NCBI GenBank assembly: GCA_028713575.1
Contig: JAQTOB010000004.1
Coordinates: 30,001 to 62,000 of the forward strand
Source: Patescibacteria group bacterium
GTDB taxonomy: Bacteria; Patescibacteriota; Patescibacteriia; UBA2591; UBA6264
Length of the DNA: 32,000 nt
Direction: 5' to 3'
Shown here: positions 939 to 27,840 of the stretch, piece after piece
Numbering within the stretch: position 1 is the first letter of the stretch
Layout: each line of letters starts with the position of its first letter
The notes under the pieces: model-generated
The model's input: only the letters and a program-made list of their open reading frames with translations
What the model was told of the DNA's origin: nothing
The model's database searches: none
Made by a program: the position numbers and the translations under genes

Positions 939-1244
939 ATGATCTCAAAAGAAGAAGTCCAACATATCGCCAAATTAGTCCGCCTGCGTCTAAGTGAGGC
1001 GGAAATAAAAAAATACCAGAAGCAACTGGGGGAAATTTTAGATTATGTTAGCCAATTGAAAAAAATTTCCACAAAAAACATTATGCCCTTTTCTTTGTTT
1101 GGATTAAAAAACATTTTTCGTTTAGATAAACCAAAAGAAAAGAATCAAGAACAGACAAGAAAATTGGTCCAATCTGCGCCGGCGCAAAAAGAGGGGATGA
1201 TTAAAACAAAAGGAATTCTTAACATTAAAGCATTAAAGCATTAA
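939..1244 (+). CDS. gatC: Asp/Glu-tRNA amidotransferase subunit C
   Basis: 101 aa. The N-terminus MISKEEVQHIAKLVRLRLSEAEIKKYQKQLGEILDYVSQL is the typical GatC signature, and the gene lies upstream of gatA. Confidence 0.85.
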   Translation: MISKEEVQHIAKLVRLRLSEAEIKKYQKQLGEILDYVSQLKKISTKNIMPFSLFGLKNIFRLDKPKEKNQEQTRKLVQSAPAQKEGMIKTKGILNIKALKH

Positions 1245-1481
1245 AGTACACAATAAGTAATTGATTTTCCAGGCCCCGTTATTTTACATTACATTTTGAG
1301 GCTGCCGTCCTTTTTTGAAAGGACGGGGTCCGGCCCATTTGTAGATGGCCTGCGGTTTGAGTTTTGTATTCTGAATTTTTTAATGGAGCAGGCATTTTGA
1401 CCATGAAAGAAAAAAAATAATTTTAGATTTAAAAAGTAAGAATATTTTTTATAAAAAGAATTTACAGCATTTACATTATTT

Positions 1482-2969: not shown

Positions 2970-3029
2970 GGTATTCAAAAAATGGCTGCTAAAATTCTGT
3001 ATCTCGGAAAAATGCTGGAAAAAATATAG
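2970..3029 (+). pseudogene. Displaced, diverged copy of the last ~20 codons of gatA
   Basis: 2991-3024 (aaaattctgtatctcggaaaaatgctggaaaaaa) matches gatA 2871-2904 (aaaattctgcatctcggaaaaatgattgaaaaat) at 30 of 34 positions. The offset is exactly 120 bp and in the same frame. It encodes GIQKMAAKILYLGKMLEKI* versus gatA GNYFQESKILHLGKMIEKLGL*. Confidence 0.6.
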
Positions 3030-5702: not shown

Positions 5703-6356
5703 CTACCCCCGCATCAGGACAATACCCCAAATTTCTTTAGCCCCGGCTTGATGCAATGATTTTGCCGCTTCCGCCAAGGTGGCGCCAGTGGTTAAAATAT
5801 CATCAACTAAAACCAAATTGGTTGGACAATCGGCTTTAATCCGGAAAACGTTTTTGACGTTATTTTTTCTTTCTTCAGGACTAAGATTTGTTTGAGAGCG
5901 CGTGTTTTTAATTTTTTTCAGAATTTTTGTATTTAGGTTTAAATTAAATTCCGTGGCTATTTCTTTGGCGATTAGTTCCGATTGATTAAATCCGCGTTGA
6001 GCTAATTTTCTTTTGGTTAGGGGGATTGGGATTAAAACAAAATTGTTTTTTTTCAAATAATCTATGGTCGTGGGCGAATATCTCAAAAATTCAATTAAAA
6101 AGGGGATAAGATAATTTAAAATATTTTGGTTAAAGGGCGGGTATTTAAAACTTCTAATAGCTTTTTTAATTAAGGGTTGATCATAGTCAAGAACGGTAAT
6201 GATTTTTTTTAGGTTGCCGAAAGAGGGAAGATATTGTCCAGTGAGAATGATTTCCGATAAACAGGTTGGGCAAATCAATTCTCCGGACTTGCCGCAGCCA
6301 AGGCAGTTAGATGGCAAAAAAATATCAAGCAATTTTTTTATTTTATTTATCCACAT
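5703..6356 (-). CDS. comFC: ComF family protein (phosphoribosyltransferase-like competence protein)
   Basis: 217 aa with an N-terminal double CxxC (CLGCGKSGELICPTC) and a C-terminal PRTase motif (LVLVDDILTTGATLAEAAKSL). Confidence 0.85.
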   Translation of the reverse strand: MWINKIKKLLDIFLPSNCLGCGKSGELICPTCLSEIILTGQYLPSFGNLKKIITVLDYDQPLIKKAIRSFKYPPFNQNILNYLIPFLIEFLRYSPTTIDYLKKNNFVLIPIPLTKRKLAQRGFNQSELIAKEIATEFNLNLNTKILKKIKNTRSQTNLSPEERKNNVKNVFRIKADCPTNLVLVDDILTTGATLAEAAKSLHQAGAKEIWGIVLMRG

Positions 6357-6600
6357 CGGGGTTGTAAAAATAAGATTTTATAGTATAATGATAACATAAA
6401 ATATAAGAACATTAAAACGCCAGAACACTAGAATATAGTGACAGAAATACAATAACTAATTATTCTAATTATTCCAATGAATACCCAATTTCCAACCCCC
6501 AATGTCTAAAAATTTTTGGTCATTCAGTCATTGGTTATTGGGATTTTGTTAGGTCAATTAGAAATTAGGTTAATTAGGTTAATTTTATCTTATTTGTTCC

Positions 6601-6651
6601 AATGTTCCTATGTTATAATGTTCTAATGTTCTAATATTAAAATGATTTATT
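6601..6651 (+). repeat. Array of 8-bp units (AATGTTCT type) running into the pilM start codon
   Basis: The register is aatgttcc|tatgttat|aatgttct|aatgttct|aatattaa|aatgattt|att-ATG. An inverted partner array lies at about 6397-6430, on the comFC side of the same intergenic region. Confidence 0.7.
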
Positions 6652-7695
6652 ATGGGGCTTTTTGGTATAAGAAAAAATAAAAGTTTTTTGGGCATTGATA
6701 TTGGGTCAACCAGCATCAAGTTGGTTGAATTAGGCAAAGAAAACGGTTTGCCGGTTTTATTGACTTATGGTTATGCCGAGAGGGCGATGAGCGATATTGT
6801 TAACGGTGATGCCAAAGAAATTTTGAGTAAAGTGGCAGTTTTGCTTAAAAAGTTATATACGCAGGCCGGAGCGGACAGCTATCAGGCAGTCACGGCTTTG
6901 CCGAATTTTTCAGTTTTCAATTCCGTGATTACCCTGCCGATGATGAGCAAAAAAGAACTTGATTCTGCGATTCATTGGGAGGCAAAAAAATTTATTCCTA
7001 TGCCCATTGAAGAAGTAATTTTAGATTGGCGAATTATTGATGTTATTGATGTGGATAAAAAAAGAAAAAATTATCGCATTCTTTTAACCGCCGCGGCAAA
7101 AAATTTGGTTAAAAGATATGTGGAAATTTTTAAACAAGCCGACCTGCAACTTCTTTTTTTGGAAACAGAAGCTTTTGCCTTAGTTCGTTCCTTGCTTGGT
7201 AAATCGCAAGCCACTACCATGATTATTGACACCAGTGCCGTCACCACGGATATTATTATTATTGAAAAGGGCGTGCCCGCGCTTAATCGTAGCATTGATG
7301 TTGGCGGGATTACTATTTCTCAGGCCATTGCCAATGGATTGAGCATTGATTTTAAAAGAGCGGAGCAATTTAAAAGAGACATTGGGATGAGCGGTCCTTC
7401 AAAAATTTCCCGGGTGATTGAAGAAATTTTAAAACCAGTAGTTGATGAGATGAGTTATTCTTTAAGGCTTTATCAGGATCAATCGGGTAAAAAAGTGGAA
7501 CAAATTATTTTGTCTGGCGGTTCGGCTTATTTGCCGGATTTATCCGATTATTTTTCAAAAATTATGAATATACGCGTTATTGTCGGCAATCCTTGGGCCC
7601 GTATTTCTTTTAACCAAGAATTAAAGCCGGCCTTGGATGAAGTGGCTCCGCGTTTTGCCGTTGCCATTGGTTTGGCTTTAAGGGAAATTATTTAA
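6652..7695 (+). CDS. pilM: Type IV pilus assembly protein PilM (actin-like ATPase fold)
   Basis: 347 aa with the N-terminal GIDIGSTSIKLVEL motif, internal motifs IIDTSAVTTDIII and DVGG, a C-terminal ILSGGSAYLPDL, and a position at the head of the pil block. Confidence 0.85.
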   Translation: MGLFGIRKNKSFLGIDIGSTSIKLVELGKENGLPVLLTYGYAERAMSDIVNGDAKEILSKVAVLLKKLYTQAGADSYQAVTALPNFSVFNSVITLPMMSKKELDSAIHWEAKKFIPMPIEEVILDWRIIDVIDVDKKRKNYRILLTAAAKNLVKRYVEIFKQADLQLLFLETEAFALVRSLLGKSQATTMIIDTSAVTTDIIIIEKGVPALNRSIDVGGITISQAIANGLSIDFKRAEQFKRDIGMSGPSKISRVIEEILKPVVDEMSYSLRLYQDQSGKKVEQIILSGGSAYLPDLSDYFSKIMNIRVIVGNPWARISFNQELKPALDEVAPRFAVAIGLALREII

Positions 7696-8401: not shown

Positions 8402-8587
8402 GATATGGCAACATTGTAATTAGAAATATTAAGATTAAAACAAACAAGATTAATTTTTCCTTATAAATTACAAATTTCTTCGTTCCTCACTCAAGAGCTG
8501 CACTTAGGAGATTTGTTCCTAAGTATTTCTGATGGGGGATGCACCCCATCAGTTTGCCCCTAACGTCAATTTTAAGTTGTATATTCC

Positions 8588-8623
8588 AATGTTAAGATGT
8601 TAGAATGTTAAAATGATTTTTGT
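8588..8623 (+). repeat. Second 8-bp-unit array, running into the start of the pilO-like gene
   Basis: The register is aatgttaa|gatgttag|aatgttaa|aatgattt|ttgt-ATG. It ends with the same AATGATTT unit as the pilM array. Confidence 0.7.
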
Positions 8624-9181
8624 ATGGCGCAAATAAAAAAAACAGAAACAAAAAAAACAAAACTATACAGAAATGTCATTATTAGATTTTATTGGTTAGT
8701 TATTCTTGTTATTTTTCTTTTAAGTTTTTCATTTGAATATTTTGTTATTATTAAGCCGAAAATCCAGCAGACAAAAAATAACGGACCACTGGATTTAGCC
8801 AGTCGTCAAGTCGTTTTAAATGAACAAAAAGATTATCTTGGAAAATTAAAGGTCTTAAAAAATGAAGCAGAGAACATTAATCGCGTTGAATTGGAAAAAA
8901 TAAATTATGTCTTGGCGGAAAAAATAAATGTTTCTGATATTTTAAAACAAATATCCATCATTTCTCAGCAACCAAAATTTAATCTGGAGGGTTTTAGCTA
9001 TAAATACGGAGAAGGCGTTTTAATCTTTAATTTTAATTTTGTCGGTGGGACTTATCAGGATGTAAAAAAATTCTTGGAAGAAATTGAAAAAAATATCCGC
9101 GTTATGGATGTTACCAATATCGCGATTAAAAACGCCGGCGACGGATTTTCTTTGGTTATAAAAAGTTATTATTTGGAATAA
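8624..9181 (+). CDS. pilO: PilO-like pilus assembly membrane protein
   Basis: 185 aa with an N-terminal TM (FYWLVILVIFLLSFSF), a coiled coil, then a small alpha/beta C-terminal domain. The call rests on position between pilN-like and pilB. Confidence 0.5.
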   Translation: MAQIKKTETKKTKLYRNVIIRFYWLVILVIFLLSFSFEYFVIIKPKIQQTKNNGPLDLASRQVVLNEQKDYLGKLKVLKNEAENINRVELEKINYVLAEKINVSDILKQISIISQQPKFNLEGFSYKYGEGVLIFNFNFVGGTYQDVKKFLEEIEKNIRVMDVTNIAIKNAGDGFSLVIKSYYLE

Positions 9182-18503: not shown

Positions 18504-19049
18504 ATGCCGCCCAAATTATTGCTTCATGTTTGTTGCGCCAATTGCGGAATAGTTCCCATTGAATTACTAAGAGACCGGTTTGACCTGACTTTATTTTGGT
18601 ATAATCCGAATATTTATCCCCGAACAGAATATCAAAAACGCTTGGCAGATGTTAAAAAATTAGTTAAAATATATAAAAAGGATTTGATTGTTGAAAACAA
18701 TGATATTAAAAAGTGGTTTGAAATTACCAAAGAGCTGGAAAACGAGCCAGAAGGGGGTAAAAGGTGCGAAAAATGTTTTCAAATGCGATTAAGCCGAACC
18801 GCGCGGTTAGCCAAAGAAAAAAGTTTTGATTTTTTTGCCACTACTTTAAGTGTCGGACCGCAGAAAAGGGCGAAAATAATTAATAAATTGGGAGAAAAAT
18901 TGGCGAAAGAATGCGATTTGAAATTTTACCCGGCGGATTTTAAAAAACAAGATGGATTTAAAAAAAGCGTTGAACTGAGCAAAAAATACGGGTTTTACCG
19001 CCAGCACTATTGCGGTTGCGTCTTTAGCATTAGAACGTCAAAACATTAA
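18504..19049 (+). CDS. queH: Epoxyqueuosine reductase QueH (DUF208)
   Basis: LLLHVCCANCG, WYNPNIYP, KRCEKCFQMRL and YRQHYCGCVFS match the QueH cysteine motifs. Confidence 0.85.
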   Translation: MPPKLLLHVCCANCGIVPIELLRDRFDLTLFWYNPNIYPRTEYQKRLADVKKLVKIYKKDLIVENNDIKKWFEITKELENEPEGGKRCEKCFQMRLSRTARLAKEKSFDFFATTLSVGPQKRAKIINKLGEKLAKECDLKFYPADFKKQDGFKKSVELSKKYGFYRQHYCGCVFSIRTSKH

Positions 19050-19052
19050 AAC

Positions 19053-19409
19053 ATGAAAACAAGTAGTTTTAAAGAAAATTTAAAAAAGAAAATGGATGAA
19101 TATGTTCATTTTGTTTATAAAATTACTCTTAATTTTCCTAAAGCGGAAATATATGGAACTGTTTCTCAATTAAGAAGGGCGTCTTTGTCGGTGGTTTTAA
19201 ATTATATAGAAGGATTTGCCAGAAGAAAGAGACTTGTTCAATTGAATTTTTTAGAAATTTCTTACGGGTCGTTAAAAGAATCAAAATATCTTTTACATTT
19301 TGCTTTGATTGAAAATTATTTGGACACAAAAGACTATAAAATTGCTTTAAAAATGGCAGAAGAAATCGGAGCTATGCTTTGGACAGAAATATCTAATTTA
19401 GATAAATAA
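19053..19409 (+). CDS. Four-helix-bundle protein (23S rRNA intervening-sequence protein family)
   Basis: 118 aa. The motif SQLRRASLSVVLNYIEGFARR and the later SLKESKYLLHFA are typical of this family. Confidence 0.7.
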   Translation: MKTSSFKENLKKKMDEYVHFVYKITLNFPKAEIYGTVSQLRRASLSVVLNYIEGFARRKRLVQLNFLEISYGSLKESKYLLHFALIENYLDTKDYKIALKMAEEIGAMLWTEISNLDK

Positions 19410-19450: not shown

Positions 19451-19515
19451 AATGTTCTAATGTTCTAGTGTTTTAATGTTTTAATGTTTTTATGTTTTTA
19501 TGTTTTTATGTTTTT
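19451..19515 (+). repeat. Third 8-bp-unit array (8 units), ending at the ATG of the next ORF
   Basis: The register is aatgttct|aatgttct|agtgtttt|aatgtttt|aatgtttt|tatgtttt|tatgtttt|tatgtttt|t-ATG. Confidence 0.8.
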
Positions 19516-19860
19516 ATGAATCCTAATAAATGGGAAAATTTAATATTTATGGCTGAGGAAAAATTTGGTTTAGACAAGAAATACATGGAAGATTTTGAGG
19601 TTTCCGAACTTTCTACGGGCGAGAAAATTATGGGCCAAAAAGAAATTGTGGAATTTAAGAGTCCTTTGGGTCGGATAAAGTTAGAAAAAACTTCCCGGCC
19701 AAAAGTCATTGATAAAAAAGTTTTACACACCAAGAGAATTGGCGGCAGAACCGCCATTGATTTCGTTTATTCGCCGGACGAAAGAGTTGAAGAGCTTAAA
19801 ATTTATAAAGAAAATAAAGAAGGGGAATGGGAAGAGTTAACGGCATTGAAGGAATTTTAA
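19516..19860 (+). CDS. Hypothetical protein
   Basis: The ORF track starts at 19492, inside the 8-mer array. The in-frame ATG at 19516 (MNPNKWENLIF...) is the first one outside the array. No family was recognised. Confidence 0.45.
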   Translation: MNPNKWENLIFMAEEKFGLDKKYMEDFEVSELSTGEKIMGQKEIVEFKSPLGRIKLEKTSRPKVIDKKVLHTKRIGGRTAIDFVYSPDERVEELKIYKENKEGEWEELTALKEF

Positions 19861-27264: not shown

Positions 27265-27840
27265 AAATAAAGAAAAGTCCTCCTATTTTTGAGGGGGTCT
27301 TTTCTTTGTTTTGAGACTCGGTTTCCCGTTGGAAACCGAGTCTCTTCACTTCTTGGTTGTTTTGAGACTCGGTTTCCCGTTGGAAACCGAGTCTCTTCAC
27401 TTCTTGGCTTCCTGTTTAAAGTTCGGTTTCCCGCTTTGCTTCGTAGCGAGCTTTGCTCTGCTACTGGGGCTGGAAGCCGAACTTCTTTATTTTATAAAAA
27501 GCCACTTGGTCTTTAAAGTCCTCCTATTTTTGAGGGGGTCTTTTCTTTGTTTTGAGACTCGGTTTCCCGTTGGAAACCGAGTCTCTTCACTTCTTGGCTT
27601 TGATACTTTGGCGCAATCCCTGATTATGCCGGCTATGGCCGATTTAGCGCAATAAAGCTTCTATTATATATACACTTTGTTTTGAGACTCGGTTTCCCGT
27701 TGGAAACCGAGTCTCTTCACTTCTTGGCTTCCTGTTTAAAGTTCGGTTTCCCGCTTTGCTTCGTAGCGAGCTTTGCTCTGCTACTGGGGCTGGAAGCCGA
27801 ACTTCTTTATTTTATAAAAAGCCACTTGGTCTTTAAAGCC
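27265..27840. repeat. Composite repeat block after the giant gene
   Basis: The ~50-bp unit gttttgagactcggtttcccgttggaaaccgagtctcttcacttcttgg occurs four times (27308, 27358, 27548, 27678). The ~110-bp unit cttcctgtttaaagttcggtttccc...gccacttggtctttaaag occurs twice (27407, 27728). The unit tcctcctatttttgagggggtcttttctttg occurs twice (27278, 27518). Confidence 0.95.

Follow-up and report, generated by a model that had tools for sequence, protein, structure and literature searches.

The spacer between a comFC-like gene and the divergently transcribed pilM gene of an ultra-small Patescibacteria-type bacterium is framed by two inverted arrays of an 8-bp unit, which raises the question of whether these arrays switch pilus and competence genes or belong to an element of another kind. 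The locus lies in the 32,000-nt stretch of DNA analyzed here, referred to as the window (G000:C4:30001-62000), which comes from a genome (G000) of 692 kb in 24 contigs with 34% G+C and 86% coding content; coordinates given without a contig name are those of the window. The spacer does not act as a switch dedicated to pili or competence and is most likely a hairpin leader. In the explanation that we prefer, with a probability of roughly 0.55, the two arrays form the arms of a rapidly changing RNA hairpin within the leader of pilM, and this hairpin is one copy of a dispersed intergenic cassette that would be tolerated as a largely selfish or near-neutral sequence. An adaptive role of the cassette is unproven.

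The comFC-like gene (5703–6356, minus strand) encodes a phosphoribosyltransferase domain and a double zinc ribbon (Pfam PF00156 and PF18912), and pilM (6652–7695, plus strand) encodes a type IV pilus assembly ATPase-like protein (PF11104, E = 5.5e-48). Between them, a sigma-70-type promoter on the plus strand (6362–6389) consists of a -35 box TTGTAA (6362–6367), a 16-nt spacer, and a -10 box TATAAT (6384–6389), and matches 10 of 12 positions in a consensus promoter scan. The comFC start codon, whose context ttatccacat is kept in relatives, lies 5 nt from this -35 box. When the orthologous comFC–pilM spacer was compared across 11 related genomes and 24 metagenome contigs, the arrangement TTGTnn-N16/17-TATAAT, placed hard against the comFC start and facing pilM, occurred in 12 of 12 genomes and in about 20 of these contigs. 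The earlier note on this DNA had described a divergent control region framed by inverted arrays; a symmetric region of this kind, bounded by arrays of binding sites, is not supported, given a conserved promoter at the comFC start that faces pilM. From the position of the promoter, transcription of pilM would start at about 6394–6397, so that about 6396–6651 (some 255 nt) would form the pilM 5' leader and the arrays would be transcribed as part of it. As this expected start coincides with the start of the left array, the comFC-side array is most simply regarded as the 5' arm of the pilM leader, and it may overlap whatever promoter serves comFC. A contingency locus, with a repeat that varies the -35/-10 spacing or the reading frame, was considered and rejected, as the arrays lie downstream of the conserved -10 box and upstream of the ATG and the 8-nt unit is not in frame. 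As a separate observation, the opposite strand of the initial comFC codons, ATGTGGATAA, gives TTATCCACA (6348–6356), an exact DnaA-box consensus that is kept in most relatives; this single match probably reflects merely the coding of Met-Trp-Ile/Lys.

On the pilM side, the units caatgttc, ctatgtta, taatgttc, taatgttc, taatatta, and aaatgatt occupy 6600–6647, preceded by a weaker unit and followed by tatt and the ATG at 6652, and Tandem Repeats Finder (TRF) reports the array at 6595–6635 with period 8, 5.1 copies, and 84% matches, so that the uninterrupted run of 8-mers previously seen here stands. The array described on the comFC side is also present (6399–6430; its reverse complement reads tagtgttct, ggcgtttt, aatgttct, tatattt) and lies 43 nt from the comFC ATG (6356), but it is far more degenerate than its counterpart. 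The exact unit AATGTTCT occurs six times in the window against 1.8 expected, and six occurrences were reached in 1 of 100 shuffles. Read as RNA in the direction of pilM, the predicted 5' arm (6393–6439, plus strand) contains the octamer cores AACAT, AATAT, AACAT, AACGC, AACAC, and AATAT, and the 3' arm (6593–6647, plus strand) contains seven AUGUU-type octamers, among them a perfect aTGtTATAAT (6610–6619) and a terminal TAAAAT (6638–6643). A terminal module on the plus strand (6640–6654) comprises AAAUGAUUUAUU and the pilM AUG.

The minimum-free-energy fold of RNA 6394–6665 is a single nested hairpin of -56.3 kcal/mol in which 6393–6439 pairs with 6593–6647. Relative to mononucleotide shuffles, the fold of the pilM leader has a z-score of -4.1, and the array-bearing orthologous pilM leaders fall between -3.1 and -4.6 on the same measure. 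The 5' arm is the best complement to the 3' arm within 300 nt, a score that 5% of random intergenic segments equal. In a related genome that is rich in arrays (G003), 15 cassettes were folded; their z-scores span -0.5 to -7.5, and 11 of them fall in the range of -4 to -7.5. These predicted folds keep a unit-by-unit register, with helices of 5–6 bp separated by 2x2 or 3x3 internal loops. An Rfam scan of the 32,000-nt window returned two tRNAs only. Sequence changes in the arms bear on the same point. In a genome of the same genus (G001) and in the metagenome contig L123, AACAA/TTGTT arms replace AACAT/ATGTT arms, both arms having changed together, and within one metagenome clade a single-unit hairpin shows a C-G to U-A double change (L135/L141 vs L137/L138). 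Furthermore, T-to-C variants are present in 15 of 121 upstream-arm units (12.4%) versus 4 of 149 start-side units (2.7%; p = 0.003, a value that treats interrelated repeat copies as independent). Because such a variant is an A-to-G change in the 5' arm of the RNA, a G-U pair would be retained. The variant bias and the double change weakly favor constraint at the level of RNA.

Several observations weigh against this hairpin. When the pilM leader was compared with dinucleotide shuffles instead, its z-score was a modest -2.25, with 8 of 200 shuffled sequences folding as well, and its 5' arm is degenerate. Among the 14 start-proximal arrays of G000, a partner arm within 300 nt was significant for only three or four. 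The spacer triplets between the repeat cores also differ by arm, with GAG in the 5' arm of the RNA and CCA or AAA in the 3' arm, and a systematic difference of this kind is not expected under simple selection for pairing. The terminal unit, moreover, resembles the -10 box of a leaderless gene at the right distance from the ATG, and the polarity and variant statistics overstate independence because repeat copies are interrelated. Since most arrays in G000 are without a partner arm, the hairpin cannot be the whole story, and it was rejected as a universal feature even though most arrays are paired in G003.

The family to which the spacer arrays belong was defined genome-wide as runs of at least three octamer units with an ATGTT core. 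By this definition G000 holds 25 arrays versus about 0.6 expected, with ten third-order Markov shuffles yielding zero to two; all but two (23) lie between genes, and 14 end no more than 16 nt from the start of an open reading frame (ORF) on the same strand. A census relative to start codons had been proposed by the earlier note, and its outcome, with arrays that are non-random, tied to starts, and strand-specific, bears out the view that a meaning at the level of RNA or translation is likelier than a classical operator. Of 20 family members whose genomes were sampled, 13 contain ATGTT-type arrays, as do a few genomes from other families, at counts from 0 to about 150 hits per genome that are sharply unequal within genera, and a control search with the reversed pattern was nearly empty. 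Arrays with units of 7, 8, and 9 nt are all frequent in the intergenic DNA of G000, as judged by TRF.

In spacers between co-directional genes, which define the sense strand, the two array types have opposite preferences, as counted over G000 and every fetched locus. ATGTT-sense arrays are nearer the start in 31 of 35 cases, with 30 of 35 within 20 nt of it, and AACAT-sense arrays are nearer the stop in 23 of 26 cases, with 23 of 26 within 20 nt of it (Fisher p = 1e-9, calculated on repeat copies that are not independent). The sampled spacers of G003 display the complete anatomy in 105–200 nt, namely a stop codon, 0–10 nt, UCAU, (AACAU-GAG)n, a center with an A/T palindrome and/or a GC hairpin, (AUGUU-CCA/AAA)n, AAUGA, 6–7 A/U-rich nt, and AUG. 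Such a cassette thus has TCAT...ATGA ends and inverted octamer arms, and near-identical cassettes of about 150 nt occupy at least five loci in G003. The ending of AAUGA, 6–7 A/U-rich nt, and AUG is common to the majority of cassettes, recurring at 11 loci in G000, in the G003 cassettes, and in the array-bearing orthologous pilM leaders. No consistent target-site duplication was visible at the cassette flanks when filled and empty sites were compared, where repeats blur the boundaries.

The genes behind the arrays encode PilM, a PilO-like protein, prepilin peptidase (PilD), IF-1, RpoA, S8, S21, GroEL, RF2, RuvC, an IscU-like protein, and others, five of which are confirmed by Pfam and the remainder recognized from sequence; the infA and rpoA loci are at C9 18243–18529 and 20312–20431. 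This diversity excludes a pilus or competence regulon, and for pilus and competence biology the message is a negative one, with no dedicated comFC/pilM switch. The inversion of the arrays about a divergent spacer, together with their occurrence before pilO and the prepilin peptidase gene, could suggest that a regulator of competence or pili binds the DNA of both arrays and acts divergently on comFC and pilM. Such an operator is extremely improbable, as the same arrays precede the genes for IF-1, RpoA, S8, S21, GroEL, RF2, RuvC, and IscU, their orientation tracks the direction of transcription inside operons too, and the 8-bp period shows no helical phasing, a departure from phased operators that had already been pointed out. 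Nor are the arrays kept at the orthologous comFC–pilM spacer or at the pilN–pilO junction, so that the conservation at pil loci proposed earlier as a check is lacking. A pilus/competence regulon and operator or iteron arrays were rejected on these grounds, namely variability at orthologous sites, the 8-bp period, and unrelated downstream genes.

Comparison of orthologous sites revealed rapid turnover, with cassettes appearing, disappearing, and changing in size even between members of one genus. The pilM leaders range from 34 to 256 nt; those of G004, G008, and G022 are short and unstructured, those of G003, G006, and G012 have AACAT and ATGTT arm pairs, and that of G009 has arms of 7-nt units. 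The closest relative found (L123, 88% PilM identity) shares the promoter exactly, as well as the first unit, GATAACAT, and the final AAAATGATTTTAT-ATG, in a leader of 75 nt with two or three units per arm and no central insert. In the window, an insert of 222 nt separates the pilN-like and pilO-like genes (8402–8623, plus strand; terminator-like hairpin at 8502–8524 and GC hairpin at 8531–8554) and contains a single ATGTT-type array (8581–8617, plus strand) followed by AAAATGATTTTTGT and the ATG at 8624. The same junction measures 2–10 nt in G010, G009, G022, and G008, whereas in G002 and G003 it is occupied by inserts of unrelated sequence. In the spc operon, the S14–S8 and S8–L6 spacers are 4–45 nt long in most genomes, with octamer cassettes between S14 and S8 in G000 and G002, a cassette between S8 and L6 in G003, and 7-mer arrays in G014. 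Relatives have filled or short spacers at the same sites; the cassettes are accordingly recent, mobile or expandable, and dispensable to the genes behind them. Free distribution with respect to genes and free variation in copy number had been named beforehand as signs against a function; position relative to genes proved to be strongly constrained, but presence and copy number vary freely among close relatives. If the cassette is selfish, it would represent a new kind of polar, slippage-driven intergenic parasite.

Two further observations concern other unit families and very long arrays. The pilM leaders of G002 and L126–L128 are filled by different units; they have GGGTAC/GGGTAT-type arms paired with CCAATTAAC-type arms and carry tandem aaggttcttgagcaaagtgaaaggttcttac repeats of about 45 bp, whose copy number is unequal between near-identical contigs. 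At G009:C9:3280-3690 (L023) and G009:C16:10030-10323, ATGTT arrays exceed 35 units, and one of them is interrupted by a run of N, which indicates that octamer repeats break assemblies; cassettes thereby explain assembly breaks at some spacers.

The main rival to the hairpin cassette starts from the promoters of G000. Among its 656 called genes, about 95 show a good -10 hexamer whose first base lies 11–16 nt ahead of the ATG, and in many of these TTGACA is placed 17 nt further upstream; the TA..AT signal peaks at -12, and the typical start-proximal box is aTGtTAnAAT. Leaderless mRNAs are therefore probably a major class in this genome. Given this box, the octamer was first taken for an iterated extended -10 element. 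On this account the junction TGTTnnAAT is an extended -10 box, the last unit (TAAAAT/TATAAT, 6–9 nt before the ATG) drives an mRNA that is leaderless or has a leader of 1–3 nt, and the units upstream are slipped, decayed copies of the box that are not transcribed, so that their AUGs are harmless. It would explain single arrays, such as most of those in G000, and the fixed distance of 6–9 nt to the ATG. The -10 class described above includes 11 of the 14 array-proximal genes, and the A at -11 that is essential to a -10 box is mostly absent from internal units and usually present in terminal ones. The sequence ATGTTAAA|ATG, with two ATGs 8 nt apart, is a natural seed for slippage, one three-unit 'array' (C2) turns out to be an ordinary promoter, TTGTCA-N16-TGTTATAAT, and the pilO array comes after terminator-like hairpins, with a box, TGTTAAAAT, 9 nt before the ATG. 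Other features do not fit. About a third of terminal units (TCAAAT, TTTAAT) are without the A at -11, including those in the pilM leaders of G003, G006, and G012, and the terminal box of pilM itself (TAAAAT, 6638–6643, 8 nt before the ATG) has no TG. Arms in the AACAT sense, located at the stops of co-directional upstream genes, would yield only antisense RNA, pilM is already served by its conserved upstream promoter, and the cassettes in ribosomal-protein operons are almost certainly transcribed through. The stop-codon arms, the terminal units without A at -11, and the conserved upstream promoter led us to set aside an iterated extended -10 promoter as the principal explanation, and we regard it as a tentative possibility. 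The two accounts are not exclusive, since a polar cassette could, by analogy with Correia elements (PMC2649163), carry an outward promoter at its 3' end.

Translation in this lineage provides the context for the last units before the start. The 3' tail of the 16S rRNA reads CCUCAUUUA / GGAUCACCUCAUUUA / GGATCACCTCATTTAGAG (G000:C3:71786-71930; L022 ~2990-3020), giving an anti-Shine-Dalgarno core of CCUCA instead of CCUCC. The change is common to every sampled member of the family, with arrays or without, and other families of the order keep CCUCCUUU / CCTCCTTT, with CCTCTTTT in one. Genome-wide hybridization profiles upstream of starts contained no Shine-Dalgarno zone or energy dip. These ultra-small, uncultivated bacteria initiate nearly without Shine-Dalgarno pairing, and a cassette lodged between stop and start, in ribosomal-protein operons too, shows what their mRNAs tolerate or need at gene boundaries. 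In side observations on the same regions, two genes carry AATGAGGT at Shine-Dalgarno distance, a perfect match to the altered 16S tail, and an AGCGAAG box peaks at -12/-11 ahead of 12 genes.

The lack of a Shine-Dalgarno signal is one reason to consider the arrays as binding platforms, in which AUGUU/AACAU words, as (AUGUUCUA)n RNA, would be bound by an RNA-binding factor or the ribosome (S1, a cold-shock protein, or the altered 16S tail) and would replace the Shine-Dalgarno sequence or regulate translation, as proposed for the TAACTGA repeat. Different genera, and even other families, retain the ATGTT core with variable 3-nt spacers, the arrays keep a strict orientation and a strict distance to the start (the mode from the last array AUG to the real AUG is 10 nt), the terminal AAAUGA(G) pairs with the 16S tail at -4.1 to -6.7 kcal/mol versus -0.9 for internal units, and the argument has a precedent (PMC4679880). 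Close relatives, however, express the same essential genes without arrays, TTGTT and various 7-mers fill the same sites in relatives, and no candidate for the factor was identified. The 16S tail is the same in family members that have no arrays, array-bearing genomes of other families have the canonical one, and pairing at -4 kcal/mol is no better than that of background zones. We consider a platform unlikely, and its specific form in which the terminal AAAUGA substitutes for a Shine-Dalgarno sequence was rejected in view of the family-wide distribution of the altered tail with or without arrays, the weak pairing, and the absence of a Shine-Dalgarno zone from the genome.

The AUGs of the arrays had also been proposed to act as decoy starts or Met-Phe-stop mini-ORFs, which would load or divert ribosomes and so tune translation. 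Many internal units do read Met-Phe-stop, 30 of 47 array AUGs open ORFs of two to seven codons that end before the real start, and with an 8-nt period three successive units span all three frames. The other 17 of the 47, however, run 10–23 codons out of frame across the real start, so that about a third of array AUGs would interfere with it; units such as ATGTTCCC, common in relatives, contain no stop, and in paired cassettes the AUGs lie within helices of the predicted folds. Mini-ORFs as a function are accordingly very unlikely. For annotators the arrays are a warning, as rows of ATGs lie just before true starts. The RF2 gene provides an example from G000 (G000:C1:3743-4052), where an array adjoins an ATG that precedes the long ORF by 75 nt, in keeping with the usual programmed +1 frameshift of prfB, so that the array marks the true RF2 start.

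Under the hairpin cassette that we prefer, the events at pilM would run as follows. The sigma-70 promoter at 6362–6389 would transcribe rightwards into a leader that opens with AACAU octamers and closes with AUGUU octamers, and unit-by-unit pairing would produce a long 'beaded' hairpin of 5–6-bp helices and small internal loops, with a separately acquired repeat of about 125 bp in its loop. This hairpin would bury the mRNA 5' end together with all seven AUGs that the 3' arm places ahead of the start, leaving the last 10 or so A/U-rich nt and the real AUG single-stranded for initiation independent of a Shine-Dalgarno sequence. More generally, a polar cassette would occupy promoter-to-start or stop-to-start spacers, with its AACAU arm upstream and its AUGUU arm against the start codon, and would expand, contract, and copy rapidly through 8-bp slippage and dispersal. 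It would be co-transcribed and tolerated because the fold and the fixed 3' end keep the downstream gene expressible. The cassette may also stabilize the 5' end or undergo processing by RNase III; the genes for RNase III and RNase J are present in the genome, making both hairpin processing and 5'-end protection possible. It is doubtful, although conceivable, that beaded hairpins are a functional device of a lineage without Shine-Dalgarno sequences, in which the fold would set an upstream stop or 5' end beside the AUG (re-initiation or unmasking through translation of the upstream gene), an RNase III cut at the base would release near-leaderless mRNAs from operons, or a dedicated factor would recognize AUGUU/AACAU. 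If functional, the cassette would be a new way to couple or stabilize genes.

Known repeat leaders and intergenic elements share parts of this organization. In Haemophilus influenzae hmw1A, an (ATCTTTC)n repeat in the 5' untranslated region is transcribed and pairs with a G-rich stretch, the repeat making up one side of a long hairpin; RNase III cuts this hairpin, which affects both expression and changes in repeat number (PMC12721329). The pilM leader likewise places a short tandem repeat between promoter and start as an arm of a leader hairpin, here a predicted one, with copy numbers that differ among relatives and an RNase III gene in the genome, whereas hmw1A is one locus with a 7-nt unit and one repeat arm, and the cassette has an 8-nt unit, arrays in both arms, and dozens of loci that include stop-to-start gaps inside operons. 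The TAACTGA repeats of marine Beggiatoaceae, some Cyanobacteria, and Bacteroidetes form start-proximal arrays before unrelated genes without a canonical ribosome-binding site, and their distribution is patchy (PMC4679880). Shared with them are sense arrays that end near starts, the lack of Shine-Dalgarno sequences and of a common gene function, the presence of some ribosomal-protein genes, and long arrays in some genomes. The TAACTGA heptamer, however, is almost never inverted and is predicted to be unstructured (PMC4679880), in contrast to an octamer with an ATGTT core for which inverted partner arms are common and hairpin folds are predicted. Correia elements of Neisseria, BOX, and repeat units of pneumococcus (RUP) are dispersed intergenic inverted-repeat elements that are co-transcribed, can provide promoters from their termini, and serve as binding or cleavage sites for RNase III (PMC2649163, PMC3049150). 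The cassette resembles them in its inverted repeats and several dispersed similar copies, and BOX also has a variable number of internal modules. It differs from them in that its arms are tandem octamer arrays in fixed orientation to the gene, a constraint atypical of such elements, and that no target-site duplication or transposase link was found. Short tandemly repeated repetitive (STRR) heptamers of heterocystous cyanobacteria are lineage-specific intergenic arrays of a 7-nt unit that can form hairpins between co-transcribed genes. Both STRR sequences and the cassette are thus intergenic short-unit arrays able to form hairpins, with different units and lineages. We know of no description of STRR sequences abutting start and stop codons in a fixed manner. 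STRR sequences are mentioned in PMC2670836. No published description of an octamer cassette in Patescibacteria or the Candidate Phyla Radiation was found in the literature searched. What distinguishes the cassette from the known repeat systems is that both arms are arrays, that the unit is an octamer, and that it is dispersed and polar, running from stop to start.

The loop of the octamer hairpin is occupied by one copy of a palindromic element of about 125 bp (6456–6585) in which 9-mer arrays surround a CCCAAT/ATTGGG hairpin (CTAATTATT x2.6 and AATTAGGTT x2.4 by TRF). The central hairpin at 6484–6541 and the aattaggtt units (6563–6584) described in the earlier note are real, and both fall within this element. 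By blastn it has at least six other copies in both orientations, partial copies included, with 86–92% identity; those in G000 include C8:3997-4118, C6:24310-24439, C21:1801-1889, C21:2664-2769, and C10:16964-17085. The element is absent from the pilM leader of L123, and as a dispersed sequence it resembles a miniature inverted-repeat transposable element. A link between the octamer arrays and the system of repetitive extragenic palindromes (REP), bacterial interspersed mosaic elements (BIME), and their associated Y1 transposases (RAYT) was rejected, given the lack of a flanking relation and mismatched phyletic patterns. Of four Y1_Tnp loci examined, three lack arrays; at the remaining one (G009, L120), arrays lie about 0.6–1 kb from the gene and do not flank it, and the array-free genomes G010, G013, and G008 carry Y1_Tnp.

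Elsewhere in the window, the longest array (19451–19518, plus strand; TRF 8.5 copies, 93%) consists of AATGTTTT/AATGTTCT units and extends into a small ORF that has in-frame ATGs at 19492 and 19516. The unit had previously been noted both before this ORF and before the pilO-like gene, and the arrays at 19451–19518 and 8581–8617 substantiate the two sightings; a Pfam search with the small ORF at 19516 gave no match. Two window arrays are of the upstream-arm type, and each holds the stop of the preceding gene. The AACAU/AGCAU-type array at 1221–1246 (plus strand) covers the 3' end of the ORF 939–1244, with the stop codon within the array, and the AACAU-type array at 19026–19062 (plus strand; TRF) lies over a gene boundary, containing both the upstream stop (ORF end 19049) and the next AUG (19053). 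The latter array, AACAUUAAAACAUGAAAAC, supplies one gene's stop and, 3 nt further on, the next gene's start (19053–19055), so that repeat units can form part of coding gene boundaries. The window also contains perfect tandem duplications of palindromic units, one of 26 bp at 2919–2968 (TTTTGGAGACCAGGTCTCCAAAAACC x1.9) and one of 51 bp at 27306–27407 (x2.0, with GAGACTCGGTTTCC...GGAAACCGAGTCTC).

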